Origin: a virus
Lineage: Duplodnaviria; Caudoviricetes
Strand: one strand, 5' to 3'
DNA length: 64,000 nt
Virus record (IMG/VR): IMGVR_UViG_3300028591_000010
Coordinates: 32,001 to 96,000 of that record
Made by a program: the position numbers and the translations under genes
The notes under the pieces: generated by a model
Databases searched by the model: none
Told to the model about the DNA's origin: nothing
The model's input: only the letters and a program-made list of their open reading frames with translations
Shown: positions 11,134 to 58,075 of the stretch, in pieces
Position numbering within the stretch: position 1 is the first letter of the stretch
How the letters are laid out: each line of letters starts with the position of its first letter

Positions 11134-11171
11134 AAAAGGGAACAACATCTTATGATGCTGCTCCCTTTTTT
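11134..11171. terminator. Bidirectional intrinsic terminator between convergent late and replication modules
   Basis: Minus strand GGGAGCAGCATC-ATAA-GATGTTGTTCCC-TTTT, with A/T tracts on both sides. Confidence 0.75.
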
Positions 11172-11641
11172 GGTATAGTTAAACCATCTTCTCCATAACT
11201 ATCTGGATAATAATCTTGTAATGGCATATCGTGGGAATACTGCGTCACTATTGACGAGTCTCCCACTAACTTATCTATAAGGTCCTTAGGAAAATTCCAG
11301 AACTGCAAAACTGAAATCTTCTGTTCTCCTGTAAGATGTACAATGCCATTTTGTTTTGCTATACCTGGTTTTATAGTAAACACATAAACATAATATGGAA
11401 CTCCTTTTACAAGTTTAACATATTTACGTTTAAGTGAACGTGAAGAATCTAAATGAATCGCTCTATTTGTAACATGATCATTTCGTATTCTATCATCGTA
11501 TACCAGATATAACTCCATATCTCCAGTAGGTTTATCTGGATCAAAGGTATAACTATCTATGAATCCTGCAGCGGCAGTGAAGTCAATCGAATTAACTCCA
11601 CCGTCGATGAAAGGAATTGTTAATTTTTCAAATGTACTCAT
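11150..11641 (-). CDS. Hypothetical protein
   Basis: 163-aa ORF, ATGA overlap with the upstream nuclease gene. Confidence 0.8.
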   Translation of the reverse strand: MSTFEKLTIPFIDGGVNSIDFTAAAGFIDSYTFDPDKPTGDMELYLVYDDRIRNDHVTNRAIHLDSSRSLKRKYVKLVKGVPYYVYVFTIKPGIAKQNGIVHLTGEQKISVLQFWNFPKDLIDKLVGDSSIVTQYSHDMPLQDYYPDSYGEDGLTIPKKGAAS

Positions 11642-12666
11642 AGGTTCAATGACTCTGAGCCATCGCCTTCATAATATTCTCTACTATGCTCCCACTTGCC
11701 TGTAGACTGATGCCATGCTATTTCATCTAGAACATCGTGTATGATTGCTATTCTAGAATTAACAGTATATTCATCAATACAAAACACACGAATCTCATAA
11801 CTACCTGTAGTATCTATACCGATAATGTAGAATTCAAAGTCCCATGTTAATGGGTCTTCTCCACATTCATTTTTTAGATACCATAAAACAGCGTTTTTAT
11901 AATAACACAACTGTCTTAGATAGTCATACATCTCTATACTTTCCTCAAAGTGCCACAGTTTTGCTGTAGTCTTTAAGTCGTATATAATAGCTTTCTTATT
12001 CTTGAAATCAAGAGTAAGACCGTCTAACAGAGATTTACATTGTACGCCTCTGCATTCCCAGTTTATATGAAATTCGTGACTGTAAGTAAATCTTGCCCCT
12101 TCGTGATACGAAACCTTTACGTCGAACGAATCTTCAAATCCAAGTTCCGTGTCAAATGGCCAGATTATCTTACGAGCAAGCTTATGAGATTGAATGTTAT
12201 GCTTGATTTTTTCAAGCATTTTAACATCCCAAGGACTAATCATAATCCTTCCATCATTTTCTTTCAAGAAGTCTATATAATCCTTCAACGTAGAGGCTAT
12301 TTTAAGGCCTTCTGACAGCATTTTGTCTTCTGACTTTCCTGCTGTACTATATGCTTCTTTATAAGCGCTTAGAATGGCTCTATTTGGCTCTATTTCTAGT
12401 GAAGATGCTAAAGCCTGACAGAACTTCTCCTGCTGTGCAGAATTAGGTCTACTTTTGTCCCAGACTACATAGTCTTTTTGGAACTCTTCTGGCTGTAACA
12501 GATATTCGTGAATCATAGTTCCACGCTCCAACACAGGATTCTTTTCTTCTGGTGGAGGATCTGTTAGCATCTTATGTAAAAAGGCTGGTCCCTTCTGTAG
12601 AAACCAGCCTATGTTCGAATTTGAGATCCTCGAAAGGTCCTCGTAATATGGAATACTTATATCCAT
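11638..12666 (-). CDS. PD-(D/E)XK exonuclease (RecE/exonuclease VIII-like)
   Basis: ISNSNI, RGTMIHEYLL, CKSLLD..IIYDLKTT and YLRQLCYY motifs. Confidence 0.8.
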   Translation of the reverse strand: MDISIPYYEDLSRISNSNIGWFLQKGPAFLHKMLTDPPPEEKNPVLERGTMIHEYLLQPEEFQKDYVVWDKSRPNSAQQEKFCQALASSLEIEPNRAILSAYKEAYSTAGKSEDKMLSEGLKIASTLKDYIDFLKENDGRIMISPWDVKMLEKIKHNIQSHKLARKIIWPFDTELGFEDSFDVKVSYHEGARFTYSHEFHINWECRGVQCKSLLDGLTLDFKNKKAIIYDLKTTAKLWHFEESIEMYDYLRQLCYYKNAVLWYLKNECGEDPLTWDFEFYIIGIDTTGSYEIRVFCIDEYTVNSRIAIIHDVLDEIAWHQSTGKWEHSREYYEGDGSESLNL

Positions 12667-13448: not shown

Positions 13449-13830
13449 TTTGTCTCTGACTTAAAAGTTCTTGGATCATTTCATCTACCTGTTTATGATT
13501 TCTCACCAGATAGCAGCGCATCTTGGAATGATGACGCTTTAAATAATATTTGAAGAGTTTCCATCTTAAAGGGAACGAATCTCCCATAAGACCTTTACAT
13601 TCTACTATAAATCCACGACCTACAAAGTCTGGTAGATATGTAATAGCACGTATTTTCTCTCCTAAAAACTCGAACTTAGGTAACAGAGTAAAATGCTTTG
13701 GCTCATATTTCACAGGTATTCCTGCTTTCATAAAAGCTTCATAAGTATAGAGTTCGAGTTTACTCCTAAAATGGATTCCATACTTATCGACCGCTGTCGC
13801 ATTTTTTACTCTGCTTTTAGAGGATGTCAT
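13423..13830 (-). CDS. PD-(D/E)XK endonuclease (DUF1064 / T7 endonuclease I-like, possible resolvase)
   Basis: FRSKLE..YEP..TYLPDF..VECKG. Confidence 0.75.
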   Translation of the reverse strand: MTSSKSRVKNATAVDKYGIHFRSKLELYTYEAFMKAGIPVKYEPKHFTLLPKFEFLGEKIRAITYLPDFVGRGFIVECKGLMGDSFPLRWKLFKYYLKRHHSKMRCYLVRNHKQVDEMIQELLSQRQNGKDKENK

Positions 13831-14074
13831 GAACAGCGTCTTTTACGCCATCCTTATCGAATCGAATAGCGGATACAATCTTACCGTCCTTACGGAGTGC
13901 AAGATAACTATTGTCTTCCTTTTCAAACTTCTTATCGATAGCAATCACCTCATAACCGTCTGACATCTGTTTAATGATGTAAGGCTGTTTGAGATATCTG
14001 TATGCTGCATATGCGGCTCCTGCACCAGTACATATCATACCAAGCAGAAAACCGAGGATCAAAGTCTCAATCAT
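13817..14074 (-). CDS. Small membrane protein
   Basis: N-terminal hydrophobic helix; overlaps both neighbours. Confidence 0.65.
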   Translation of the reverse strand: MIETLILGFLLGMICTGAGAAYAAYRYLKQPYIIKQMSDGYEVIAIDKKFEKEDNSYLALRKDGKIVSAIRFDKDGVKDAVHDIL

Positions 14075-15041
14075 ATCGCTTTACTGTATTTGTAAACCAA
14101 GTTTTCACTTGGTCATAGTTATTATTCTTTACTGCGTCTGAAATATCTTTCGATTTAAATTTCTTGTGGACAAATATAGCGTCAAATTTATACTGTTTAC
14201 TGTAATCACGAGCTTTCAACATTCCTGTTGCATCTCGATCATACAATATAACAATATGTTTCCATTTACGTCGTAATGACTTAATTATATCTTCTGGTAT
14301 AAAGGTAGTTTCACTTGATGCAGCTATAGCATTAAATCCCATCTCATACAAACACATCACGTCTTTCAACGATTTTGTGATTATAAGCAGATTTCCCCCC
14401 TCATAGGGCAATTCGGCTAATCCCTGAACGTGCCGATTTGTCAGATTGGTACGCCATTTAGTATACTTTGAGGCTAAAGGACGATAAATCTTAAACTTAT
14501 CATAAACCTTATATGCATACATAGGACTATCTTCTTTGTAGGTTCCTCTGACGACTCTATTACATAAGAAGTATTTAATGCTAAATACATTGAATCGCTT
14601 TAATGTATCAATTGATATATGAAATTGCTTCCAATATCTCTTGTCTGCTTCAGTAAACGGTTGTCGAACTATTCCGATATCAGTATCTTCTCTAGGAGTA
14701 TATGATCGCGTCACTGTTGCCGCACTGCTGGTTGGATTAGATCGCCGTACGATCCTCAGCAATTCTTTCTCTAGTTCTTCTCTCGTTTGTATTCCTTTAT
14801 AGAGCTTCATAAACTTGAGAGCATTACCTGCTACTCCAGTTCCATGATCTTTGAAGAATAATGTACCTTCTTTATTTGGAAATATACAAAAAGAGGGCAT
14901 CTTATCATCACTTCGTAAAGGACTATTCATTAACTTACCAGGCTTAAATGGGCCTAAATAATATGAATAGATTGTATAGTCATCCACTTTTGACAACAAG
15001 TCTCTAAGACTCATTGTGATTGCTGTTTTTGTGCTATACAT
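14067..15041 (-). CDS. DNA primase (TOPRIM, crAss-type)
   Basis: SPLRSDDKMPSF..FKDHGTG N-domain; IITKSLKDVMCL and ILYDRDATG TOPRIM motifs; KDISD. Confidence 0.8.
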   Translation of the reverse strand: MYSTKTAITMSLRDLLSKVDDYTIYSYYLGPFKPGKLMNSPLRSDDKMPSFCIFPNKEGTLFFKDHGTGVAGNALKFMKLYKGIQTREELEKELLRIVRRSNPTSSAATVTRSYTPREDTDIGIVRQPFTEADKRYWKQFHISIDTLKRFNVFSIKYFLCNRVVRGTYKEDSPMYAYKVYDKFKIYRPLASKYTKWRTNLTNRHVQGLAELPYEGGNLLIITKSLKDVMCLYEMGFNAIAASSETTFIPEDIIKSLRRKWKHIVILYDRDATGMLKARDYSKQYKFDAIFVHKKFKSKDISDAVKNNNYDQVKTWFTNTVKRYD

Positions 15042-15065
15042 GGCTTATAAGCTCTTTTGTATTGT

Positions 15066-15125
15066 TGTGTGTAGGGATTCGAACCCTATTACGTAATTTT
15101 TCATACGCAGCCTCCAGGATCACAC
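15066..15125 (-). ncRNA. tRNA-like element upstream of primase
   Basis: GTGTG..TAGGG-TTCGAAT-CCCTA-CACAC: perfect T arm on a short acceptor stem; no canonical D or anticodon arm. Confidence 0.55.
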
Positions 15126-15399
15126 TTCAGGTCATCTTAAACTCTTTTGTATATTCTTTGTCTTTTACACAGTTTGAATAAAACTTCCAACCCACATATC
15201 ACCATGTTTATTTCTAAGAGGAGTGATATGATTTGACCTCTTCGTTAGGGGCTGACAGGATTAACCTATCAGTCCTCCACCACTGACCGTTTTCATCAAC
15301 CACATATAGATATGAGGACAACTCCATCTCAATTTATAGAAATAAAGTTTATCCGTCCTATCTAAGTGGATGTATCTTATGATTTCCTTTTCAGGTATA

Positions 15400-15996
15400 T
15401 CAAAAAGGCAGGTCGTCAGCACCTGTTGAAGTCTCAGTCACCGGAGTAGCTGCTACGCTAAGCGGATCTGCAGCAGGCTCGTTGTCTGCTACAACTGGAC
15501 GCTCAAGAAGATCGTTCTTCCAGAGCTTAATCTGAGACTCTGTTACACTCATAGGTTCAACGAATGCACCAAGAGAACTTACTTTCGTAAATCCTTTCTT
15601 GTCATAAACCACCTTAAGACGAAGAGGAGTAGCCAACTGAACTGTTTCCAGCTGAGTTTTAACCCAATTTATCATTTCAATAAACGAGCTACCTTCAAAC
15701 TCATTATGACTACCGTTAACAGAATCTATTACCTGCAGAATACGACCGAACTGCTGATTATCGCGCTGCTGAAGTTCTTCATCAGTCTTAATCCACATAT
15801 TCTTCTCGTTCTTCCACTCAGTCATAGTTGCTGTCTGACCCTGTTCATTCTCAAAGATTATCTCCAAGAAATCACGTCCTTGAGGTGTTTTATTTACATT
15901 AACTTCTTTTAAAGTTACATTTTCGTTGATGCCTACAGGCATATAGGAGCTTGTAAACTCCTGATTATTTGTTGTTGCTGTTTTTGTACTATACAT
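15400..15996 (-). CDS. Single-stranded DNA-binding protein (putative)
   Basis: Acidic tail ending ADDLPF; sits in the replication cluster next to a Sak4-like ATPase. Confidence 0.7.
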   Translation of the reverse strand: MYSTKTATTNNQEFTSSYMPVGINENVTLKEVNVNKTPQGRDFLEIIFENEQGQTATMTEWKNEKNMWIKTDEELQQRDNQQFGRILQVIDSVNGSHNEFEGSSFIEMINWVKTQLETVQLATPLRLKVVYDKKGFTKVSSLGAFVEPMSVTESQIKLWKNDLLERPVVADNEPAADPLSVAATPVTETSTGADDLPF

Positions 15997-16022
15997 AATT
16001 TCCGATATTGACTCTAAGGTTC

Positions 16023-16766
16023 TTATTCAGGTTTATAAACACGATCCCAATAGGTTGTTATAGATCCATCATCGTTTCCGGTAGCAATGACAATGTCCTT
16101 GCCCGCGATATGTCTAGCGCGAGCTTCCATGATCGTTCCATCTCCTCCGGATTTAAAACTAATGTGCGTTTCATTATCCTTCCGATAGACGTATCCGACT
16201 GCATCAGCCATTCCGCAGACAATCTTTCCAAGTTTTCCAACGAGGTCGATTTCTTTGGCGTTGACCTCTTCGCCATCTTTATCGGTGATACTATCTTTGA
16301 CATGTCCTATTAGGATAAACTCGTCACACAAATCTTTGAACATATCGATTACTTTCTTTACAGCATCGCGTAAGTACTTATAACCTGCACCTCTTGCGAG
16401 TGTTGTAACATCAGTACCTTTCCAGTTTTTACCCAGTTCAGTCTGCTGATACAATTTGCAAGCATAAGACATACATATGTCCTCTAATCGTGTAGCATTA
16501 TCTATTGTTATATGTTTATAGAAATTATGTCCTACCTCATCGTTCTTAGCTCTAATGGCTTGTGCTATCTCTCCCAGATCATTGATGGTACGTGCCTGAA
16601 CAGCTAGCGCATCTATGAACTGAGATCCGCCTTCAAGGTCTATGATGAGATTATTCTCCAACTGTGCTACACACGAAGTCTTACCAGACTTAGGAAGTCC
16701 GTATAGGATTAAATATGTAGGATTAGTAGAGACTGCAGGAACTTTTTGAGTAGGTAATGTTATCAT
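16023..16766 (-). CDS. AAA_24 / Sak4-like P-loop ATPase (ssDNA annealing/recombination)
   Basis: ILYGLPKSGKTS, IIDLEGG, ITIDN, ILIGH, ADAVGY. Confidence 0.8.
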   Translation of the reverse strand: MITLPTQKVPAVSTNPTYLILYGLPKSGKTSCVAQLENNLIIDLEGGSQFIDALAVQARTINDLGEIAQAIRAKNDEVGHNFYKHITIDNATRLEDICMSYACKLYQQTELGKNWKGTDVTTLARGAGYKYLRDAVKKVIDMFKDLCDEFILIGHVKDSITDKDGEEVNAKEIDLVGKLGKIVCGMADAVGYVYRKDNETHISFKSGGDGTIMEARARHIAGKDIVIATGNDDGSITTYWDRVYKPE

Positions 16767-16787
16767 ATTGACTTAAAGTTCTAATAA

Positions 16788-17282
16788 TTAAAGGATGTTA
16801 ATATTAATGTTCTTAGCACCCTTAATATAAATGTCGATGATAGTCTTCTTCTTGTTCTCAGCAAGAGAATTCAGGAAGGAAATATTACCGAAGTCCTCGT
16901 AATCGAAGAAATCGTAACCAATCTGAATATTATTCTCGTAGAAAACAATAGGAGTACCATCTGACAGAGTATAACACTTACCGATAATGTACGGGAGCTT
17001 ATACTTCTTGGTATACAACTTATAATTGGTAAGGAACTTACCAGCATCATACAACTTGGGACCGCCCGTCAGGATAATATCACCTGAAGTTTTGCTGAGG
17101 AAATAATCAGCGTCCTCATTCTTTGTACTCAGATTCTTGAACAAATACTGGTTCTTGTCGATTATATCAGTAAGAATGATATCATCGAGAATCTTAGAAT
17201 AGTTTGTACTGCTGGGATTAGCCAGAAAGGAATAATTCTTATTGTTGTTCTTAGTCTTACCAAAAGTGAAAGTCTTTGTCAT
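16788..17282 (-). CDS. Hypothetical protein
   Basis: 164-aa ORF in operon. Confidence 0.75.
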   Translation of the reverse strand: MTKTFTFGKTKNNNKNYSFLANPSSTNYSKILDDIILTDIIDKNQYLFKNLSTKNEDADYFLSKTSGDIILTGGPKLYDAGKFLTNYKLYTKKYKLPYIIGKCYTLSDGTPIVFYENNIQIGYDFFDYEDFGNISFLNSLAENKKKTIIDIYIKGAKNININIL

Positions 17283-17327
17283 AATTCAGCCTAAATTTAA
17301 AAGTTAATACTTGTCATCCACAACGTA

Positions 17328-18251
17328 TTAGCTTTCAATCAGATTATTAAACATAAGGTCATTCTCGAATTCAAGTATACAAGGTTTACCTGCATCTCTG
17401 TTTTTCAACATATGCATGTAGACTTTGTTTTGTGTAGGTAGATGATTCGGACCATATTCTTGTATGTTCAAAATCTCTGGTCTATGCATTACGAGCACAT
17501 AATCACTCGCTTGAAACATTGCATCGGATGACGATAAATCGCTGCGCATTGGGTAATGACTCAGCGGATTGTTTATCCTTTCTGAAGATTCAATGTTTCT
17601 ATTCATCTGTGCTATTTGCACTACTGACGTTAACGGGAACTTTTTAGCTTGTATGAAAACACGCTCAAGTTCTGCTGTTGTCTCTATTACAGAACCAACT
17701 TGTTTCGTCAGCAGAGTATGGTCATACACTATTAAGAAGTGCTTGCCCGTATCTTTCACATAGGTGAAATAGAATTCATTTATAATACGTCTTACATCTT
17801 CAGGAGTACCTGGATTATCTACAAAATAGATAGGATATTCCTTTAGCTGATTAGATACTCTAATGACTTCCTTAAAGGTATTGTCATCGAGGTCCGTCTC
17901 CGAACTATACAAGGTAGAAGTCGTTTTACGAAGTTTATTCGAAAGCGTTCTTCCAACTTGCCTAAATCCAACCATCTCTAATGAGAATGATAAGATGATT
18001 ATATCTTCATTAGGATTCAAATCAATCACATCAGTAGTTAGCTCATTAACAAACGAGCTCTTACCGGAACCAGAGATACCAGCTATGGTATAAACGGTAT
18101 TTGGTTCAATACCTCCCATACACTGCTTATTAAACTTAGACCACCTAGTTTTCAATGAAACAATATTATGTTCCCTTCTACCTCTGATATAGTTGATAGC
18201 TTCTTGAGCTACAACACTCATTGGACGTACTTTAGATGATATCTGTTCCAT
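17328..18251 (-). CDS. dnaB: DnaB-like replicative helicase (C-terminal ATPase domain)
   Basis: AGISGSGKSS, FSLEM, IVYDH, AQMNR, SDLSSSDAMFQASD, KNRDAG. Confidence 0.9.
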   Translation of the reverse strand: MEQISSKVRPMSVVAQEAINYIRGRREHNIVSLKTRWSKFNKQCMGGIEPNTVYTIAGISGSGKSSFVNELTTDVIDLNPNEDIIILSFSLEMVGFRQVGRTLSNKLRKTTSTLYSSETDLDDNTFKEVIRVSNQLKEYPIYFVDNPGTPEDVRRIINEFYFTYVKDTGKHFLIVYDHTLLTKQVGSVIETTAELERVFIQAKKFPLTSVVQIAQMNRNIESSERINNPLSHYPMRSDLSSSDAMFQASDYVLVMHRPEILNIQEYGPNHLPTQNKVYMHMLKNRDAGKPCILEFENDLMFNNLIES

Positions 18252-18798
18252 AAGAATTTACTGCTATTTTGTTCGTATCTTCCATTTCTTCCTCGATGGC
18301 CTCCCATTGGCTTCTAGTGAGCCAATTCCACATAGTCATCATATAACTAAGGGAGCCTTCTCTCATGCGCTTAGACACCTCGTAGTCGAGGCATTTAATT
18401 ATATGCTCTGCCATAGCGGAGCTTTTACCACATTTAGTATTGAAGAAATGCCGACATTTATTTACATTGGCACGAAGATAGCTTTTAGTGCCATCTTTAC
18501 GCATCACATATACTGGATACATATCGTAAAACAAGTCGAAATAGCTCTTATTAGGAGTTATTGCTTTATTCAACTTGTCTGTTGGTTGATATGTCACAGA
18601 GTCTCCTCTCTCTATCGACTCGACTAATAAATTATCGATTAAGTATGATATCTCGTCGTCGCTGATTAGGCTGACAATCTTGCGGACGTCTTGATATGAT
18701 GGTTGATTCTTATCCAATACCATACTTAAGAACAGTAATTGATTTGAGTTTAGCTCTGGAAATTCATCCAAGAGCTTAGTGTTTACTTCAATAATCAT
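18232..18798 (-). CDS. Putative replication initiator / helicase-loader-like protein
   Basis: FDLFYDMYP..WNWL pattern; lies between PolB and the helicase. Confidence 0.5.
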   Translation of the reverse strand: MIIEVNTKLLDEFPELNSNQLLFLSMVLDKNQPSYQDVRKIVSLISDDEISYLIDNLLVESIERGDSVTYQPTDKLNKAITPNKSYFDLFYDMYPVYVMRKDGTKSYLRANVNKCRHFFNTKCGKSSAMAEHIIKCLDYEVSKRMREGSLSYMMTMWNWLTRSQWEAIEEEMEDTNKIAVNSYGTDII

Positions 18799-18827
18799 AC
18801 TGTTGACTCGGGGTTCTAAGTTGGTTA

Positions 18828-20693
18828 CTAAAATAATGATAGCTGTTGTTCAGTGAAGTCCGCTATCACTTTTTTGGCTTCACTGATATAGTACCGATAG
18901 TTAATCTTTCGATCTTCTATCTTGCGATCATCAAACTTATTCAGGATTGTTACTCCTGATTTTGTTAACATATTTGTTCGGTCTCTATCGTCTTCAGGAT
19001 TATCCTTGAAGAGATATGCTCCGTTTGTACTTGCGTAAAATCTATTGATACGTTGTACAGGTTTATCACCATGTATAACTTTAAACTTCTTGTCTACTGC
19101 TTGTGACATCAAGAAATCACGGATTTCTCTATCCTTCTCAATAGTTTCTGTCACTGGAATATGATGAACAAAGTAATTTATAACTGCCTTAGGTATGACT
19201 ACAGGTGCTAGTCCCTTACCTAATTTGTTTTTAGTTATAAACATACCTTTTTCTTCTATCTCACCATTCTTCAAGACCCCAAAGTAGTCGTTGATAGCGT
19301 ATTGATAGAATGCTTCGTACTCATCGGTTTCAAACATAAGCTGTGTAATCTGTTCAACCTCTGAGATGGCTTCCTGAATTCCTTCTCTAAGGCTGTTTTT
19401 AGCCCTGTAGACGACGCCATCGGTGTTGACCTGTATAATCTCACATCCGAGCTCTAAAAGCCTGTCTACGAGCATTAAAAGGATTAGCTGACCGTTTATT
19501 CTAATCTTAAAAACATTGAACGGATCATACATCCAGCTTACCTCCTGTTGCATTTTACCTGTAGGAGAATTAAGCACGATCTTTAGAAACAAGTTCTTAA
19601 TCTTTTGACCTGTACGTTTTGCTTCTACTCGCTCAGCATATAAGTCAGCGAATATATCACAAAAGATTTTTCCTAAGTGGCGAGGTCCCCATTGATATTT
19701 AATCAAGAAGGACGGATACATCGAAGTCACATCTGCGTGACCTATAAACTCGTCATCTTTAGGTAGGAATATCTGCGGTGTGTGGATGGAGTGTATACCA
19801 CCCACGCCTACAGAGTATACCACGTTTGAGAGAACAAACTTCTTCTCATAGCCTTTGCGTTCTTTAGAGTATACGACTTGTTTCTTCATATCTTCTAGAA
19901 CGTCTTGTAACTTTGGATTTTTGTATTTTATATATGGCAATATGACATCCTTCAATGGAATATAATCCATTGGAGAACGCATCTCCTTTATAACATTTTT
20001 AGGAATACCTGTTCTCTTAGAATATTCTTCTAACAGAAAGGTTTCTGCCATCTTCACACTATCCATAGACAAACAGTCTATGCCGTGTTCTTGTTCAATG
20101 AACAAACGCAATTCAATATCTGGTTTCAAACGGTTTAATAACTCTTCTGTTGAATCTACGTCGTTTATATTATATGCAATCATCTCATCGATGTCATCAT
20201 CTTTGATAGGAGCATTAAAGTCACCATCATACTCCTGCACATTTCTATAATGCATTGTCACCTGCATAGTCTTAAGACCAACACGTAGTTTTCTACTGAA
20301 TTGCATTGTGAGCAAATCCATCGATTCGAAGTAATGTGCATACTTCCATCGCTTAATCCGCTCGTATTTTTCATCCTCCGTTTCCACTATATATTTCGAT
20401 AAGTTGTAAAGAGACTGACATATCTTTAAATAAGACATATTAGACAACTTATAATAGTAATCTATTATATAGTTAATTACAACATCATCATAGTGATGAT
20501 TATTATAACCACAGAACATCTTTTCAGAACTATCATAATAGAAAAAATCAACTAGACTGTCTAGCTGATTCTTTCTATTAGATATTTCGAATTTATGTAT
20601 TTGTCCACTTTCAGTATCTTTACAGCAACAGTGGAATGCGTTAGGGAAGATCTCTACGTCATATACGTAGACTCGTCGATTTCGTATCCACAT
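18828..20693 (-). CDS. polB: Family B DNA polymerase with 3'-5' exonuclease
   Basis: YDVEIF, GYNNHHYD, YNINDV, DVTSMYPS, KIVLNSPTG, QVNTDGV; C-terminal QLSLF; stop is TAG followed by TAA. Confidence 0.92.
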   Translation of the reverse strand: MWIRNRRVYVYDVEIFPNAFHCCCKDTESGQIHKFEISNRKNQLDSLVDFFYYDSSEKMFCGYNNHHYDDVVINYIIDYYYKLSNMSYLKICQSLYNLSKYIVETEDEKYERIKRWKYAHYFESMDLLTMQFSRKLRVGLKTMQVTMHYRNVQEYDGDFNAPIKDDDIDEMIAYNINDVDSTEELLNRLKPDIELRLFIEQEHGIDCLSMDSVKMAETFLLEEYSKRTGIPKNVIKEMRSPMDYIPLKDVILPYIKYKNPKLQDVLEDMKKQVVYSKERKGYEKKFVLSNVVYSVGVGGIHSIHTPQIFLPKDDEFIGHADVTSMYPSFLIKYQWGPRHLGKIFCDIFADLYAERVEAKRTGQKIKNLFLKIVLNSPTGKMQQEVSWMYDPFNVFKIRINGQLILLMLVDRLLELGCEIIQVNTDGVVYRAKNSLREGIQEAISEVEQITQLMFETDEYEAFYQYAINDYFGVLKNGEIEEKGMFITKNKLGKGLAPVVIPKAVINYFVHHIPVTETIEKDREIRDFLMSQAVDKKFKVIHGDKPVQRINRFYASTNGAYLFKDNPEDDRDRTNMLTKSGVTILNKFDDRKIEDRKINYRYYISEAKKVIADFTEQQLSLF

Positions 20694-20719
20694 GACTCAA
20701 AGGTTCTTTAGTTTATACT

Positions 20720-20841
20720 AGTAGAATGGTGAGGAGTCGAACCTCACATCACCGATTGGAGGGAAACCTTATTAAAGGAAATATTGAGTTTCTCGAATAT
20801 CTTTACACCATCCCCGTTCTTACCTTTAAATGACATTCTAC
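20720..20841 (-). ncRNA. tRNA-like element upstream of polB
   Basis: GTAGAATG (20841-20834) pairs with CATTCTAC (20728-20721), stacked on GTGAGG-TTCGACT-CCTCAC; long non-canonical insert. Confidence 0.55.
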
Positions 20842-21081
20842 ACTTGCGCACACCGTGGAATTCAACCACTCTCCGTTTCGAATGAGACGCTTGGCGACTC
20901 ACGAAGAACTGCGCGGTCACCCCCGATTCTTTCGAATCTGCCGATGTCGTGACATGCAGTAGTGTGCTACACAGTTACGTTTTAGTTCCGCTATCGGGGA
21001 GCTCAACTCTCGTATTACATTTTTTCCGTTTGCTACGAATTTCACGTAGCGATGGTGTACTAAAAGAGGCTTTACTGTGCA

Positions 21082-21933
21082 TTATGCGGCTTGAGGCAAG
21101 ATCATACGACCCTTCTTACGCTTATGGTCTTTCAGGTTTGATGCTACAAGCTTCTTATTCAGAGCTTTAGCCTCGTTCGTAATCTTCTGTGCCTTTCTCA
21201 GCAGCTTAGAGTTTTTATCCAGCTCATTCACACGATGACCATCACCGTTGATGTCTTTCAACTCTGCTATTTGCTTTTCCTGATACTGTGCAGTACCAGA
21301 TTCACTGATTTTGTACCGACCAGTGAGCGGTAACTTGTCAAACATAGAGACAACGAAGTCTCTTATTCGTATCAAAGCCTGTTCCTTCTCAGCTTCCCAA
21401 GCAGGAATCAATTCGTCCTTAAACAAATCGTCGTCAGGACAAGGCTTCGGATGTTTCTTCTCCCATTTCTTGAGCTTATCTTGAGTATAAAACTCCATCT
21501 TGGCTGCTTTGCCTAGATTCTTCCACAGTTTCTTTTGATAATCCTGTGAGTTGGGATACTCTGATGGATAGTCCCATTTCTTAAGTTCGACTGTTCCATC
21601 CTTATGTTTTATCCACTTCTCTCCGCGTATTCTCTTATAAAGAGACTTGCACTGTGGATACTTCTCGTGTTTCCAATTACAAGTGAGTTGATGATACGTT
21701 AATCCGTATTTATCAGGTTTATCGTTAATCACCATATATGCTCCAGCCATATTAGGTCCTACATTGAATCTAGATAGCTTATTTGTTATTGTATTCCACG
21801 GAACCTGATATATCTTCTTATCAGAAAACTTTTTAGGTACGGTACAATTTCTAACGGAGAATTGACGACTCATGGCTGCAAGATGCGCTACTTTTCTTCT
21901 ACGCACCTTAGGACGTACACTGCGACTTCCCAT
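21082..21933 (-). CDS. Basic hypothetical protein ending in ..PQAA
   Basis: 283-aa Lys-rich ORF. Confidence 0.8.
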   Translation of the reverse strand: MGSRSVRPKVRRRKVAHLAAMSRQFSVRNCTVPKKFSDKKIYQVPWNTITNKLSRFNVGPNMAGAYMVINDKPDKYGLTYHQLTCNWKHEKYPQCKSLYKRIRGEKWIKHKDGTVELKKWDYPSEYPNSQDYQKKLWKNLGKAAKMEFYTQDKLKKWEKKHPKPCPDDDLFKDELIPAWEAEKEQALIRIRDFVVSMFDKLPLTGRYKISESGTAQYQEKQIAELKDINGDGHRVNELDKNSKLLRKAQKITNEAKALNKKLVASNLKDHKRKKGRMILPQAA

Positions 21934-25049: not shown

Positions 25050-27170
25050 TGATACCGTGGTTGATCCACCAACGATAAGTTAGAATATTTCCTACTTCAG
25101 GGTGTAGGTTCACCGCTATAGAGAGATTTACGTCCGGCTCGGCGGCTCTATGTCTGGACGGTGTTCGTCATACTTATTTTTACTTCGGTAGCTGTGCTAA
25201 TGGGAAGCTTCGTTTGCTTACTAGATTGTTACACTTCTATATTCCTTAAAATGAAGCTCAACTCATGTAACGGGAGCGAAATGGTATCGCATGTATACCC
25301 ATAGACTAATAATATTCGAAGCTTTAAATGCCGAATGTGTAAATTCAATTTCTAAGTTTTCTTGAACAAGATATTTATTGTTTGTAAAATATTCACTAAA
25401 TACTTTCCCTTACGGTACTAAATCCAGAGTTTATACTTGTCCGTTGGCAAAATTTTGGCTAGGCCAACTAATGCTCATAGGACCCCACAAAAATTCGCGT
25501 AATTTCTTCGTTAGTATATTTCCCGTTGTCTATCGAATCATTACTGCGACGATTGTTGCTTAACCACAGATTTTCTCTGATGTTGCATGGTTTAAGGCCC
25601 ACACTACTATTTACCTATATTCCCTTTTAATCATGACGTGCGTGTGTCATTGCACGGGACGTGCTTCATTATCGAACGATCTAGGCTCCAGAACCAAATA
25701 ACCTTACGGCTTGTTTTCTTCTATTGGCATATTGCTTGCCTCATTGTTTATAGTGCACGAATACTGGAGGAATTCCACCTCATACGTCTAGATTTATCAC
25801 CCACCTAAAGATTCATTTTTATCGGTTTCCATTACTACTACTTACACACTAGGTATAAGGTTCATGCAGGTCGCTTTACCCCTCCTAGACAGGGAGGTGA
25901 TTACTAATTTCACGATAGGCTGCCTTGCATCTGGATTTCTCCTTTGTCACGTATATTGCTTCATGGTCCGAACGCACCATCTAGATTTGCTGTCTAGACT
26001 TCTGGTCTACCATCTTGCTACTTGCTTCTCAGGAACGGTTGGCACTCGAACTTCCCGACTTCAACTGCTTCTCATACAACGAGAGCTAAGGTCTTCTACA
26101 CCTTTTTCTATTATTACGTCTATCGGGGGACATCAATTTTTGTTAAACATGTTAATTAACTCTACGGCACGTTTTTCTACTCACATTTAGTTTCATCAGA
26201 ATCTACTACATCGATATGTTGTTCACGTATAGTATACAGTTTACTACTCTGCCGGGACTATATGATATAGTAACATAAGGAATCATCTGATTATATTCAT
26301 GCTTTTGAGGAAGCGGACTTAAGTCTGTACTGGTGTGTACAGGGTCGGATCAACTCCCTAGATAAGTAAATTTGGCTGTCACGTTGCCATCGTACCACAG
26401 GACATTTCCTTTTACTGTGGGTCCTTCTATAGAATCATACTCGCTTACCAGTACTATCTACCTTTGAAATAGCGTTTCTACGCGCGCTTCATCCGCGTAT
26501 TGTAGGCACCTGTCCTACAAGTTAAGTAGTGCATCTACCCGCTGTCCTTTTACTTTTATATACCGCATAAATGACGAAAGCCTGGCGGTCAACATTTTCC
26601 TCAGTACCCCATCCCCGGTGACCCATTGAAACCTTAGCTTCAAAGGTGGTCATTCTGTCTCGACACAGAAAGGATTTCTTCAAGGACCATATTTACGATA
26701 TGGCGCAGACAGTCAAACCTTCTGCTAGGCACATATGTTATTTCTTCATCCCTTTATACACGCTGTGGAGGCGTGAAACACTAGATTACAGCTAATTGAT
26801 ACATCATTACAAGTCATGGTCAAATGTAATGTTGCGACTCCTGTCTCGTTATACTACCCTTATGTATCCTCAGATAGCATGTCGAATACGGCATCATTCT
26901 GCGCTTCTTGCGACTTACTCGTTTTTATGGTAATCCCTCACCAAACGGTTCTCAGGGGCCAAAGGACTTGATACAAACGCTCTGTCCTCTTACTATGAAC
27001 TTTTCTGTTATGGAGTATGCATAACATCATAGCATTTCATCCTACCTTTTGGATATCTCACCTTTTGAGAAGGCTAACATATTCTCGGATCAAGTTATAC
27101 TCTTCGCACCTGGGCTAATGAGACCCATCTGAAATGTGCTAAGCAGGTGCCACTCTGGCTGGAGCCACAG
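25050..27170 (-). ncRNA. Candidate very large structured non-coding RNA region
   Basis: About 2.1 kb with no minus-strand ORF in the track, inside a dense minus-strand operon; many hairpins (25881-25897, 25963-25980, 25980-25998, 26472-26483, 26500-26520, 26653-26670, 26687-26703; CC-GTAA-GG twice). Confidence 0.55.
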
Positions 27171-29188: not shown

Positions 29189-29593
29189 TCAAGAATCATC
29201 TATAATTGCAACCGAGTTTGGTGGATTCGGCAAGATATGGATGTATCCCTGAGTCACCTCAGAGACATTACTCAAGGTAAAATTACGCTCATAAGCAGGT
29301 ACTATTGCCTGACTCACAGGTTCTGAAGTTACCTTCTTAGGTGCTGGTAGACCATCATCTGCTAAAAGGTATACTAATGAACCTGATGAAGCCGCCAGCC
29401 CCTGTGTGGGCTGTACCTGCATGAACGTCGTCTTACCTTCATCTTTAGCGAAGCTATCATGGATAAGCTTAACGCCTGCAAAGCCCAACACATAACATGT
29501 GAGCAATGCCCAGAACAGCTTATTACTTTCATTGTATCGAGCAATGAGAGTAATTAATACTATTCCGAGAATGAAAGTGAACAATGTCAACAT
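29189..29593 (-). CDS. Membrane protein (2 TM)
   Basis: Two N-terminal hydrophobic helices; directly downstream of the sigma gene. Confidence 0.75.
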   Translation of the reverse strand: MLTLFTFILGIVLITLIARYNESNKLFWALLTCYVLGFAGVKLIHDSFAKDEGKTTFMQVQPTQGLAASSGSLVYLLADDGLPAPKKVTSEPVSQAIVPAYERNFTLSNVSEVTQGYIHILPNPPNSVAIIDDS

Positions 29594-29596
29594 AAC

Positions 29597-30166
29597 TTAA
29601 ACGTTAATTTTGGTTTTTAATTTGCGTCTAGTTCTCGACAACGTTGACTTTATAGTTCCTGTTGGGATTTTTAACGCTTTACTAATCTTTTTAACTGGTA
29701 AATTATCGACATAAAACAACTCAAAGATCTTACGAGTGACCTCTGGTAGTTTTTCGAATTCAGCGACAACTTGTTTATACGTCAAATGATTGACTAGATC
29801 ATCCTCCGCTGATACTTGAACATTTTTAAGTGACAGTCTATCACCTTCATCTTCAAGTACAAGTCGCTTATTACGCGTCTCACGTAAATAATCTACAGCT
29901 GTATGATTAGCTATAATTCTCAGCCAACCTCCAAAGGAGTTGTAAGCTGTGAATGTCGAGAGTTTATCATACACTTTAAGAAATACAATATTAGCGATAT
30001 CTTTCGCTTCATCCATATCTCTAAGATATTGGAATAACACACTTTCAACAAACGGTTTGTATCTTCTATAGAGTGTATTAAAAGCAAGCTCATCGCCTGC
30101 TTGCGCCTTTTTGATTAGACCAATTTCAACATCGGTGATTCTAGGATTCTTCATAATCAAAAACAA
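29597..30166 (-). CDS. ECF-type sigma-70 factor
   Basis: AQAGDELAFNTLYRRY, AKDIANIVFLKVY, FGGWLRIIANHTAVDYLR (region 2); LPEVTRKIFEL..ISKALKIPTGTIKSTLSRTR (region 4). Start may be at MKNPR. Confidence 0.92.
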   Translation of the reverse strand: MFLIMKNPRITDVEIGLIKKAQAGDELAFNTLYRRYKPFVESVLFQYLRDMDEAKDIANIVFLKVYDKLSTFTAYNSFGGWLRIIANHTAVDYLRETRNKRLVLEDEGDRLSLKNVQVSAEDDLVNHLTYKQVVAEFEKLPEVTRKIFELFYVDNLPVKKISKALKIPTGTIKSTLSRTRRKLKTKINV

Positions 30167-30806: not shown

Positions 30807-31304
30807 TTAATACTTACCTTCTATACAACATATCAAGAATTCTGCTAAGTTATCAACATACTGATACTTTGCTTCTTTCTCCTCCTGCGTACAATTGGGA
30901 GAAGGTAATAGCCAAGAAAGATAATCTCGAATGATTTCAATCTGTATATCAAAATCATCTTTACCTTTCTGTTTAGAGATACTGTATGCATGTTCAATGC
31001 ACTGAAATTCTTTCATGAACCATTTAACCCATTTAGAGATACGTTCCCAATATTCTTTTTCTTCATTGGTTAAATCGTCCCAATTAATAGTTTTATCAAA
31101 CTCAAATTGATATTTACCATGTTCAGCAATGCCCAATGCTATACGAGTAGCATTATTACGCTGATCTTTATCACGATATATACCAATAAAATTTGAATAA
31201 ACATGATCTATCCACTTTTCTTTAGCTTTACGCCATTTAAGTGCATAGTTTACCATCTTGGGACAACGGTCCCGTAACATTTCTTTGTATCCTAATTTCT
31301 TCAT
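30807..31304 (-). CDS. Hypothetical protein
   Basis: 165-aa ORF starting just after tRNA-Arg. Confidence 0.8.
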   Translation of the reverse strand: MKKLGYKEMLRDRCPKMVNYALKWRKAKEKWIDHVYSNFIGIYRDKDQRNNATRIALGIAEHGKYQFEFDKTINWDDLTNEEKEYWERISKWVKWFMKEFQCIEHAYSISKQKGKDDFDIQIEIIRDYLSWLLPSPNCTQEEKEAKYQYVDNLAEFLICCIEGKY

Positions 31305-31926: not shown

Positions 31927-32211
31927 GACTCTAAGGTTCTGAATAGAATATGCTTGCATTCTTGATATACAATGCAGTGTCAATATGTTGATACAATCTC
32001 GTACTGTAGCACCGGCTCTCAGGCTCGTACATTGTAATTTTTGATCAAATGCCCACATATTATTACACCGTGTGGACAGTGGCAGTTCTCCGCACGTGGC
32101 TCTCAGGCTCTTGTGACAGATGTTAATTCACCCGTATCTAATACCCAATTCTATAGGCGATGCCATCATCTTTTGAGATTTACATAGATTTAGACGTGGC
32201 TCAAAGGCTCT
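31927..32211 (-). repeat. Non-coding cluster of four AGARCY-N-RAGYC motifs
   Basis: Copies at 31927-31940, 32014-32027, 32098-32111 and 32198-32211, spaced 84-100 nt. Confidence 0.7.
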
Positions 32212-32238: not shown

Positions 32239-32745
32239 TTAATACCAATAGCATTCTACGTAGTGGCGATATTCGCCCTCATACGAGTTACGCAGCTCGC
32301 GCATAGCGTCTTCATACTGCTTGTCAGACTCAGAGACCTTCTTTCTGAAGTCCTCTTCCATCTTCTTAGTCTCGGCTTCGTGCTCAGTAGGAGTGAGCAC
32401 CAGTTTTGCGTCGATCTTTTTCTTGGTCGGGATCAACTCACCGTCCTTGATTTCACACTCGACGCCGAGCACACGCTCCACCAGCTTCTTGGTAGCATCG
32501 AGCTTCTCCTTCGTGATATCGTCCTCACGACGGCGCTGCTGGAGCTGGAGCAAAGTCTTGCGGTTGACATAAGTAGCGATACAAATCTGCTTCTTAGCAG
32601 CGCGCTTCTTTTTGTCATCCTTTTCTTTTTCAATCTCTGCCAGGGCATTTTCGATAGCCGTGTCAGTTACTTGGTTACCAGTGCGAATAGCACCTTCTAC
32701 TCCCTGTGTGGCCTCCTGGGCCTCTTTCTTTGTTTTTTCTGCCAT
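32239..32745 (-). CDS. Charged coiled-coil hypothetical protein
   Basis: 168-aa ORF with biased codons and a TATCAAAAATG start context. Confidence 0.85.
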   Translation of the reverse strand: MAEKTKKEAQEATQGVEGAIRTGNQVTDTAIENALAEIEKEKDDKKKRAAKKQICIATYVNRKTLLQLQQRRREDDITKEKLDATKKLVERVLGVECEIKDGELIPTKKKIDAKLVLTPTEHEAETKKMEEDFRKKVSESDKQYEDAMRELRNSYEGEYRHYVECYWY

Positions 32746-44680: not shown

Positions 44681-44755
44681 TGCTCCATGGTGTAATGGTA
44701 GCACGGGAGGCTCTAACCCTCCAGGCCCGGGTTCGATTCGATGGTGGGGCGACCA
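44681..44755 (+). tRNA. Amber suppressor tRNA(CUA), Gln-type body
   Basis: TGCTCCA/TGGGGCG-A-CCA acceptor, TGGTGTAATGGTAGCAC D arm, GGAGG-CTCTAAC-CCTCC (CTA at 44713-44715); irregular T stem. Confidence 0.9.
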
Positions 44756-57972: not shown

Positions 57973-58075
57973 TGCGAGGTAGCTTAATGGTAAAGCTGGA
58001 GACAAGTGCTTGTAAACGCGTTGTGGCGGCAAGTGAAGGAGGCACCTGTAGATGGTTCGATTCCATCCCTCGCGG
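57973..58075 (+). ncRNA. tRNA-like RNA with intact acceptor, D and T arms but an enlarged non-canonical anticodon domain
   Basis: TGCGAGG/CCTCGCG, AGCTTAATGGTAAAGCT, GATGG-TTCGATT-CCATC; a ~52-nt insert replaces the anticodon and variable arms. Confidence 0.65.

Follow-up and report, generated by a model that had tools for sequence, protein, structure and literature searches.

The motif shared by the replication genes of this phage was found to be an element of 12 to 14 nt in which four base pairs covary and two fixed bases are left unpaired, and it is best read as the operator of a translational regulon, a reading that we consider probable. The phage is an uncultured, tailed, dsDNA crAss-like phage of the gut, and the window, the whole stretch of DNA that was analysed (64,000 nt), is part of its 106-kb genome. 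From the comparisons described below we infer that a protein reads the element, that it does so in RNA and that what it controls is translation.

The first-pass annotation had derived the consensus AGARCY-N2/3-RAGYC from six sites, all of which were found at the minus-strand coordinates and ATG distances that it gave. This consensus is enriched in the window, with 11 matches against about one by chance, all 11 on the minus (gene-sense) strand, whereas equal frequency at random positions and strands had been named as the outcome that should count against the motif. The form AGARCYNNNRAGYC had nine matches against 0.53 expected (nine or more in 0 of 100 shuffles), and the 13-mer form had two against 0.42 expected. 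Beyond the window, the 106-kb genome contributed one further match, on the plus strand and within a coding region, the pairs of which are not preserved in relatives. Eight genes carry a copy within a span that runs from 35 nt ahead of the A of the ATG to 18 nt past it:

20694..20707, minus strand: AGAACCTTTGAGTC at polB, abutting the ATG (20693), 0 nt
18805..18817, minus strand: AGAACCCCGAGTC, with a 2-nt spacer, 6 nt 5' of the ATG of a 188-aa organiser-like gene (18232-18798)
16770..16782, minus strand: AGAACTTTAAGTC, 3 nt 5' of the ATG of the Sak4-like ATPase gene (16023-16766)
16010..16023, minus strand: AGAACCTTAGAGTC at SSB, 13 nt 5' of the ATG (15996)
15042..15055, minus strand: AGAGCTTATAAGCC at primase, abutting the ATG (15041), 0 nt
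13458..13471, minus strand: AGAACTTTTAAGTC at the AAA ATPase, 9 nt 5' of the ATG (13448)
11643..11656, minus strand: AGAGTCATTGAACC, 1 nt 5' of the ATG of the last operon gene (11150-11641)
30137..30150, minus strand: AGAATCCTAGAATC in the sigma-70/ECF-like gene (29597-30154), starting 1 nt after the ATG (30154), in codons 2-6

The consensus masks the true rule, which is one of base pairing. The element has the form 5'-(A)G-b-x-y-z-(N2-4)-z'-b-y'-x'-C, in which the four pairs are G:C, x:x', y:y' and z:z' and in which an unpaired base b, an A in the window phage, stands once in each strand. As judged from its sequence, the element is a nearly two-fold symmetric mini-helix. The pairing was tested in ways that avoid circularity. 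Among frames of the type G-b-NNN-N2-3-N-b-NN-C in the sense strand of 80 related loci, 533 were fully complementary against 303 expected, whereas the antisense control gave 312 against 307, and 25% of the fully complementary frames lay close to an ORF start (-9 to +25 nt), as compared with 2.3-2.7% of the other frames. Similarly, 168 of 228 GA-RY...RY-C frames were complementary (AC/GT 80, GT/AC 36, AT/AT 30, GC/GC 22), against 16 of 64 in the antisense control, and true direct repeats were scarce (AC/AC 2, GT/GT 2). A further test used 28 distinct sites picked solely for abutting an ATG, with G at position -13 and C at position -1; in these, 98.2% of the cells were paired, with 25 double-change cells, a result matched by 0 of 500 shuffles, while slid registers gave 10-43% paired. 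The modelled helix would not form by itself, its dG being +2.8 to +6.9 kcal/mol, the minimum free energy structure of the bare motif is an open chain in 12 of 13 copies, and in copies with a 2-nt spacer the innermost pair cannot close in a simple hairpin. The loops are mostly U/A-rich and 2-3 nt long, and GGA is absent from them.

Conservation upstream of orthologues, the lack of which the first-pass annotation had named as a refutation, was observed at seven genes, from 44/80 to 68/77 relatives, as compared with at most about 10% at gene-internal control positions. The polB copy is retained in 57/69 relatives, with a spacing of 0 in 19 of 22 distinct contexts, and the primase copy in 44/80, with a spacing of 0 in 10 of 12 contexts. 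The copy of the organiser-like gene (68/77 relatives, mostly at +6) has an outer pair that covaries from G-C to T-A in some lineages, for example in TAACC-AAA-GAGTA. For Sak4 (57/77), the ATG of some relatives lies within the element, as in AGAACCT-ATG-AGTC or AGAGCCT-ATG-AGCC, and there the Ser codon AGU or AGC covaries with the upstream base. The SSB copy (60/79) is found 6-21 nt from the ATG, mostly 11-21, and in most relatives a purine-rich, GGAA-like stretch separates the two. The AAA ATPase copy, which lies within the 3' end of the preceding coding sequence, is retained in 29/38 relatives at +7 to +10, with a compensated variant GAATT-ACT-AAATC. The least clean site is that of the last operon gene, the halves of which are swapped relative to polB and which is retained in 20/36 relatives at +1 or -7. 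The sigma-70/ECF-like assignment of the gene at 29597-30154 comes from Pfam (Sigma70_r2, 6.3e-14; r4_2, 3.5e-12) and a PHROG sigma factor match (5.2e-23).

The base b is A, T or C, and it is uniform over all copies of a given genome, whether at start codons, in the sigma gene, in the upstream non-coding copy or in the array described below. For instance, in the T-type genome cr7_1 the equivalent codons of the sigma gene read GTATC-AGC-GTATC. On a tree built from helicase, primase and Sak4, T arose in two separate clades; one of these is sister to an A-type group, and the C type falls inside the other. The base b switched from A to T at least twice and from T to C once, each time at every copy of the genome. 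A single putative trans-acting reader for all copies is strongly supported, because both unpaired bases switch in concert at all of them, and the earlier proposal of a shared trans-acting factor behind the motif is thereby strengthened.

We propose that one sequence-specific trans-acting factor would clamp the mini-helix and read its two unpaired bases. The near two-fold symmetry of the element suggests that this factor is a dimeric protein. Since the unpaired base changed again and again inside a single phage subfamily, the phage probably encodes the factor itself; a host factor may also be the reader. At the eight genes the element would fall within the footprint of the initiating ribosome, so that the bound reader could set the efficiency of initiation on the mRNAs that carry it. 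Since the AUG adjoins the element, lies in it or precedes it, repression by occlusion appears to be the likelier direction of control. Several observations weigh against the operator reading: G-U mismatches show no excess, copies with a 2-nt spacer cannot form the innermost pair as a simple hairpin, six copies are away from start codons, and the distance to the AUG, from overlap to 21 nt upstream, allows no one geometry on the ribosome. The idea of a replisome regulon holds for the replication genes, which do carry copies, but it is too narrow, since a sigma-factor gene and a non-coding RNA are also included.

Six copies in the phage genome are distant from start codons, namely the one at 25136, the four of an array and the one at 29311, and they are listed here together with the gene next to the array:

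25136..25149, minus strand: AGAGCCGCCGAGCC, non-coding copy; the next ATG (25033) follows 102 nt downstream
31927..32211, minus strand: non-coding array of four copies (31927-31940, 32014-32026, 32098-32111, 32198-32211)
29311..29324, minus strand: AGAACCTGTGAGTC, perfect consensus copy inside ORF 29189-29593
32239..32745, minus strand: gene for a highly charged 168-aa protein, which the array always follows

The copy at 25136 lies where a 2.1-kb stretch free of ORFs ends on its 3' side. Its equivalents in five relatives lie 4.1-4.4 kb from the polB copy and covary from GAGCC/GAGCC to GAACC/GAGTC, with the T-type form in cr7_1. The copy at 29311 had no equivalent in G001 or G002 when a 3-nt spacer was searched. 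The array begins 27 nt past the stop of the 168-aa gene and lies upstream of a permuted tmRNA and a tRNA-Arg. A further 26 genomes yielded arrays, mostly of 3-4 copies (range 2-5), each with the b type of its own genome; they begin 19-57 nt past the stop of the homologous 168-aa gene, and their copies are most often near +30, +140, +225 and +310. No array was found in G015. Profile matches to the 168-aa protein were obtained in 27 of 30 genomes, including cr10_1; cr115_1 and cr50_1, which were checked for the array and lack it, also lack this gene, as does G013. The array would bind the same factor as the mRNAs and could serve as a decoy or a loading platform. The 168-aa protein, for which no Pfam or PDB relative was found and the tree of which gave no resolution, is possibly the reader of the element, as a lead only; none of four candidate binder proteins had an informative fold or family. 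A self-contained post-transcriptional circuit of one crAss-like subfamily can be outlined tentatively, in which a dimeric RNA-binding protein, possibly the 168-aa protein, would read two flipped-out bases of the mini-helix and control translation of the replisome and sigma-factor genes, a decoy RNA with 3-4 sites would buffer it, and the specificity base would have been recoded at least three times. If this is true, the recoding of that base (A to U twice, U to C once) took every operator along.

Alternatively, an endoribonuclease that recognises both structure and sequence, like T4 RegB or Cas6, could process or inactivate the transcripts at the element. Cutting at or beside the mini-helix would free tRNA-like RNAs from mRNAs, trim leaders or destroy initiation regions at a set time, with the array as a run of cleavage sites yielding small RNAs. 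The copies at polB and primase follow two tRNA-like genes closely, both called by ARAGORN at relaxed settings only:

20721..21042, minus strand: tRNA-like gene, tRNA-Gly (tcc) with a 244-nt insert; 13 nt separate its end from the polB copy
15064..15309, minus strand: tRNA-like gene, tRNA-His (gtg) with a 158-nt insert; 8 nt separate its end from the primase copy

The T arm of the first is visible in the sequence. In relatives, ordinary tRNAs stand directly ahead of polB, cr131_1 has a tRNA-Leu directly ahead of primase, and cr130_1 has a tRNA-Gln and a tRNA-Leu about 260 nt upstream of it, so that these transcripts are processed anyway. Furthermore, copies also occur in non-coding RNA adjoining the tmRNA and tRNA genes, and the concerted switch of b suits any sequence-specific protein, a nuclease included. 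However, a tRNA before polB is also found in subfamilies without the element, and tRNA processing therefore does not require it. In addition, Pfam and PHROG scans of 20 neighbouring minus-strand ORFs returned no nuclease-like family, and the placement of the element follows the AUG with gene-specific spacing rather than transcript boundaries. A cleavage site of this kind is unlikely.

It could also be supposed that the element is a cis-acting start signal, read directly by the host ribosome or a host factor, which replaces the Shine-Dalgarno sequence and marks independent initiation sites within the operon. Initiation in Bacteroidota proceeds largely without Shine-Dalgarno pairing, the flush copies occupy the position of the SD-antiSD helix, and the element is found at genes with independent starts or a need for initiation of their own and is missing from the tightly overlapping, translationally coupled starts of helicase (kept in 2/78) and exonuclease (1/73). 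A general start signal is nevertheless quite improbable. The element is limited to the middle/replication region, with no copies ahead of the plus-strand (late) genes, and it is absent from sister subfamilies and crAss001 despite the same gene set. Its gene-specific spacing, from an AUG inside the element to 21 nt upstream, counts against a single ribosome geometry, the base b differs between close relatives such as G010 and the cr7-like clade, a pace at which the conserved ribosome is unlikely to change, and the non-coding arrays serve no start codon.

A DNA-level element appears highly improbable, whether as a promoter or operator read by the phage's sigma-70/ECF-like factor, as a single-stranded hairpin promoter of the N4 type, or as a replication or recombination signal at module boundaries. 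In its favour, the phage has a sigma factor of its own, GAAC and GTC in the halves resemble ECF -35 and -10 boxes, G-U single mismatches do not outnumber A-C ones (23 vs 23), so that the mark by which pairing in RNA is usually known is missing, as expected for DNA pairing, and conserved junctions could aid recombination, DNA-polymerase genes being swapped among crAss-like phages. In ECF/sigma-70 promoters, however, the -35 and -10 boxes are about 16-17 bp apart and upstream of the start site, whereas the halves here are 2-4 nt apart; the compensatory changes (AC/GT, GT/AC, GC/GC, AT/AT) do not suit sigma reading of duplex DNA; an element flush with, around or after the ATG puts a downstream start site inside the ORF; the sigma gene also occurs in subfamilies without start-codon copies; and there is neither a common upstream element nor a Bacteroidetes TAnnTTTG box, so that the first-pass rejection of a promoter is borne out. 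The N4 hairpin promoter has a stem of 5-7 bp and a 3-nt loop, and transcription from it starts about 11 nt past the loop. The element does not fit this model: the bulged stem here has four interrupted pairs, and in copies flush with the ATG a start at that distance would fall in the ORF.

A translational operator of this kind has partial counterparts in known systems. T4 RegA acts as one factor at the initiation regions of many early and middle, largely replication mRNAs and shuts them down, and here too copies overlap the initiation regions of several replication mRNAs. To this extent the analogy drawn by the first-pass annotation is valid; however, RegA sites are AU-rich and unstructured with a loose consensus, and the present consensus hides four covarying pairs with two fixed unpaired bases, so the element is unlike them. 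Pfam and PHROG scans of 20 minus-strand ORFs returned no RegA-like family. The coat operators of MS2/R17, Qbeta and PP7 are hairpins with an unpaired purine at or over the start codon, the flipped-out bases of which are read by a repressing dimer. The present element resembles them in the unpaired base at or over the start codon, here on both strands, and, with the Qbeta operator, a 3-nt loop in most copies. In contrast, the coat operators form a stem of about 7-8 bp without help, are present as one copy per genome and have the capsid protein as their reader, whereas the element has 4 bp interrupted by two bulges, is not stable by itself and is found in a dsDNA phage at eight genes plus non-coding copies. 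CsrA/RsmA is a dimer that binds GGA motifs in hairpin loops across mRNA initiation regions, with CsrB/RsmZ arrays as decoys. A non-coding RNA carrying an array of the mRNA target site and a dimeric binder, putative here, are common to both systems; here, however, the bulged bases and mini-helix would be recognised, the loops are without GGA, the array is limited to 3-4 copies and is invariably found behind the same protein gene, and the ORFs scanned gave no CsrA-family match. T4 gp43 and gp32 regulate single genes autogenously through translational operators, each with its own distinct structure; a structured RNA element in the initiation region of replication genes is likewise proposed here, but one element is common to many genes. 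Compared with the six sites of the first-pass annotation, the present analysis added the copies at 11643-11656 and 30137-30150, the five non-coding copies and the internal base pairing.

The phage is crAss-like, with a genome of 106,373 bp bearing direct terminal repeats, and belongs to Crassvirales, Suoliviridae, Oafivirinae, its nearest named relatives being cr272_1, cr273_1, cr131_1, cr130_1, cr7_1, and cr124_1. Phages of this kind are among the most abundant viruses of the gut, and to our knowledge post-transcriptional control of expression in them has been little described so far. On the minus strand the replication genes run from about 22.7 to 11.1 kb, in the order two basic proteins without known function, polB, a 188-aa organiser-like protein, a DnaB-like helicase, a 164-aa protein, a Sak4/RecA-like ATPase, SSB (with a DDLPF tail), a DnaG-type primase, two small genes, an AAA ATPase, an exonuclease, and a 163-aa protein; the starts of the helicase and exonuclease genes overlap the gene before them.

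The first-pass annotation had proposed a motif shared by the start codons of six replication genes, and all six sites were found, position and distance to the ATG alike. When frequency at random positions and on both strands was examined, the consensus proved to be enriched in the window (9 matches to its 14-mer form against 0.53 expected, and 2 to its 13-mer form against 0.42 expected), and every match in the window was on the sense strand. Further copies are as follows.

25136, minus strand, consensus match
29311, minus strand, consensus match
31927, 32098, and 32198, minus strand, consensus matches in a non-coding array
32014, minus strand, fourth array copy, from looser structural scans
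30137, copy in a sigma-factor gene, from looser structural scans
11643, 1 nt 5' of the ATG of the last operon gene (11150-11641, minus strand), from looser structural scans

Outside the window, the sole plus-strand consensus match in the genome, AGAGCTTATAAGTC (G000:C1:5643-5656), is within a small conserved ORF. Opposite-strand matches, one each in four relatives at places not confirmed to be the same, have A-C and G-T combinations instead of the pairs, and the match looks like coding conservation and not a member of the element family.

Conservation at the starts of orthologues, which had been anticipated for a true operator, was observed at seven genes among 80 relatives, while control placements within genes contained the element in at most about 10%.

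Retention of the element in relatives and its spacing to the ATG
polB: 57/69; spacing 0
organiser-like gene (18232-18798, minus strand): 68/77; spacing +6
Sak4: 57/77; spacing 0, or ATG within the loop
SSB: 60/79; spacing 6-21 nt (mostly 11-21), with a purine-rich stretch between
primase: 44/80; spacing 0
AAA ATPase: 29/38; spacing about +9
last operon gene: 20/36; spacing +1, or ATG inside
helicase: 2/78; no spacing
exonuclease: 1/73; no spacing

Relative to the A of AUG, the element ranges from 35 nt upstream to 18 nt downstream, and in the form with the ATG inside, codon 2 alternates between the Ser codons AGU and AGC in covariation with the base 9 nt upstream. The element also occurs in the ORF at 29597-30154 (minus strand), which encodes a sigma-70/ECF-like sigma factor (Pfam Sigma70_r2 and r4_2; PHROG sigma factor) and whose real start is the ATG at 30154; there it begins one base later and spans codons 2-6. 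In most SSB orthologues (loci L014-L093) a Shine-Dalgarno-like AAGGAA or GGAA stands between the element and the ATG, and in this phage only GGAAA is left of the purine-rich stretch (15997-16009, minus strand). Such a stretch is unusual in phages of Bacteroidota hosts. A promoter was rejected, as there is no conserved upstream sequence save an A, no Bacteroidetes TAnnTTTG box, and the geometry is incompatible.

The copies at polB and primase are preceded, at 13 and 8 nt respectively, by the ends of tRNA-like genes. The long ORF-free gaps 5' of both genes finish in clear tRNA T-arm and acceptor halves, and ARAGORN, with introns allowed and a relaxed threshold, called the two genes below, at which neither default ARAGORN nor Rfam made a call; they may be tRNAs with introns, or else larger RNAs that end in a tRNA-like part.

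20721-21042, minus strand, tRNA-Gly(tcc) with a 244-nt insert
15064-15309, minus strand, tRNA-His(gtg) with a 158-nt insert

The element is genuine as well as conserved, and its structure follows the pairing rule G-b-x-y-z-(N2-4)-z'-b-y'-x'-C, with four pairs and one unpaired base, b, in each strand. Compensated variants were found at orthologous upstream regions in relatives (for example GAACC..GAGTC, GAGTC..GAACC, GAGCC..GAGCC, GAATC..GAATC, GAACT..AAGTC, GAGCT..AAGCC, GTATC..GTATC, and GCATC..GCATC), and the outer G-C pair is replaced in some by A-T or T-A. The rule was examined by four tests that do not presuppose it. Among frames drawn from 80 related loci with no constraint other than G, b=b, and C, 533 were fully complementary on the sense strand against 303 expected, compared with 312 against 307 expected on the antisense strand. 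An ORF start was nearby (-9 to +25 nt) for a quarter (25%) of the fully complementary frames and for 2.3-2.7% of the others. In the 4x4 table of inner dinucleotides from GA-RY...RY-C frames, 168 of 228 were complementary, and 16 of 64 in the antisense control. Finally, 28 distinct sites picked only because they abut an ATG with G at -13 and C at -1 were 98.2% paired, with 25 double-change cells and zero single-side changes; no shuffle matched this degree of pairing, and slid registers gave 10-43%. The modelled helix has a dG between +2.8 and +6.9 kcal/mol, and 12 of 13 copies, taken as bare motifs, fold to the open chain. The helix is unstable by itself, and what selection on the pairs maintains is therefore something that arises only within a complex.

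Several known architectures were rejected on these patterns. In a direct repeat of GARYC, AC/AC and GT/GT would be expected, and these are nearly absent while complementary combinations dominate; a hammerhead core and a K-turn with tandem G-A both conflict with the covarying pairs and with b being T or C; and a trans-acting antisense RNA is excluded because x and y vary among sites, so that no single RNA pairs with all. Rfam gave no match at the start-codon copies and, over the array, only RAGATH-22, far below threshold (23.9 against 120 bits).

The unpaired base is identical in both halves of a copy and across all copies in a genome, and it differs by lineage. This phage is of the A-type; the T-type comprises a cr7_1-like clade and a second clade with G003, G006, G009, and G016, and the C-type comprises G007 and G008. 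Start-codon copies and the non-coding array carry the base of their genome in each of the three types, and in T-type cr7_1 the sigma-gene copy and a copy 4.4 kb upstream of polB do so as well, the N-terminus of the sigma factor having changed from K-N-P-R-I to E-Y-Q-R-I with the change from GAATC..GAATC to GTATC..GTATC. On a tree built on helicase, primase, and Sak4, the T-type is split between two distinct clades, both with good support. The sister group of the cr7-like clade, L079/G010, has A as its b in every copy, the C-type is nested inside the other T clade, and a basal clade of about eight loci is without start-codon copies. Recoding of a non-paired base together at about a dozen dispersed sites is predicted by co-evolution with one sequence-specific reader and is not predicted by a purely cis-acting structure. 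This is good comparative evidence that a single trans-acting factor would read the element.

Translational control appears to be the best-supported function. At copies that are flush with the ATG, contain it, or follow it, the helix would have to open before the 30S subunit could engage, and a factor clamping the helix would block initiation; we therefore favor repression as the direction of control. If the adjoining tRNA-like genes are processed like tRNAs, the element would make up nearly the whole leader of the polB and primase mRNAs. Recognition by a site-specific endoribonuclease, which would make the same element a cleavage site, is an unlikely alternative that we nevertheless rank first among the others. 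A start signal read by the ribosome or the host is more doubtful still. Least probable of all is action in DNA, the phage sigma factor included. Single G-U and A-C mismatches number 23 each, which is as expected for pairing in DNA. A duplex-DNA palindrome was rejected from the sequences themselves, the paired positions being shifted by one relative to the outer pairs and thus having no dyad. The missing G-U excess is the main oddity for pairing in RNA, and the comparison is uninformative as a test at that level; equal numbers are expected also if the reader demands Watson-Crick geometry.

The best lead to the reader, and a lead only, is by position the 168-aa charged protein at 32239-32745, which 27 of 30 genomes were found to encode. 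All but one of these 27 have an array that begins 19-57 nt after the stop of this gene; it comprises 2-5 copies, usually 3-4, placed most often near +30, +140, +225, and +310, and its b is always that of the phage genome carrying it. Pfam and PDB searches gave no relative of this protein, and b type did not cluster on its poorly resolved tree. Another ORF, of 90 aa, has a basic N-terminus and a conserved R-x-HH...K-x-W-C and is located about 2 kb upstream of the array, for example at the following positions.

G006:C1:6462-6731, minus strand
G003:C1:73190-73435, minus strand
G008:C1:10218-10505, plus strand
cr7_1 17556-17828, plus strand

It is present in every T- and C-type genome in which the region is covered and absent from 16 A-type records and the partial C-type record G007; its presence in A-type G010 rules it out as the general reader. 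Three further candidates were rejected. The 283-aa basic protein (21082-21933; AF2 pLDDT 64.6) had no Foldseek match with E <0.001, and its best VIA-align Z, 6.3, covered a helical hairpin only. The 165-aa protein adjoining tRNA-Arg (30807-31304, minus strand) is predicted with high confidence to be an all-helical domain (pLDDT 93.8, pTM 0.86) and had no Foldseek PDB match with E <0.001 and a best VIA-align Z of 5.2. The 164-aa protein (16788-17282) had no Pfam or PDB relative, and its detectability and similarity follow b type only loosely. Presence/absence profiling against motif-negative subfamilies returned dozens of fast-evolving ORFs and singled out none.

Start-codon copies were absent from Uncouvirinae cr115_1, Boorivirinae cr10_1 and cr50_1, and Steigviridae crAss001. 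All five Suoliviridae genomes checked have a sigma-factor homologue, the ones from Uncouvirinae and Boorivirinae, which lack these copies, among them. The array and the 168-aa gene are both present in cr10_1 and in the basal-clade genome G012; the gene is missing from cr115_1 and cr50_1, and a scan of cr115_1 showed no array. The array and its preceding gene predate the start-codon copies.

Three known systems are close in function, and the element lacks a defining feature of each: the long stable stem of the coat-protein hairpin operators of ssRNA phages, the unstructured AU-rich site of the T4 RegA regulon, and the GGA loop of the CsrA/CsrB decoy arrangement. It would therefore work like them and be a member of none; the analogy with RegA drawn in the first-pass annotation would hold for function and fails for the site, which is structured. 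Text searches of the literature found no description of the element, and the phi14:2 preprint describes sigma-70-like middle promoters only, with early genes having no shared motif. If our reading is correct, a clade of uncultured phages would have a defined regulon tying replication proteins to a phage sigma factor, through a compact module for RNA-protein recognition, the specificity base of which was recoded several times in nature. Nature would thereby have supplied a ready set of orthogonal operator variants and an experiment in how a regulator evolves together with all its sites, and a search for protein residues that track the A, T, or C type would be a concrete route to the regulator. 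The element also shows that Watson-Crick pairs can be kept by selection even where the helix needs a partner to be stable.

Other features were observed in the course of this work. The 164-aa gene, in the interval between helicase and Sak4, is preceded at 17283-17327 (minus strand) by a different conserved box, GTATTAAC-N8-12-AGGCTGAA-N1-4-ATG, found at the same spot in L001-L005 and L094-L096; its AGGCTGA part is retained in cr115_1. In that motif-negative genome (L094, 897-938 and 2951-2992), polB and the organiser-like gene have in common an 11-mer, AAACTTTAATG, 2-3 nt before their ATGs, which may be an analogous yet distinct shared leader element. A stretch of 2.1 kb in this phage (25034-27175, minus strand) has no ORF of at least 60 aa on the gene strand, and the copy at 25136 is at its downstream edge. 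A 103-nt Rfam tRNA match, possibly with an intron, is located at 57973-58075 (plus strand). A suppressor-type tRNA with anticodon CTA (ARAGORN 'tRNA-Pyl') at 44681-44755 (plus strand), together with the short ORFs in much of the plus-strand late region, hints at TAG recoding in the late genes of this phage.
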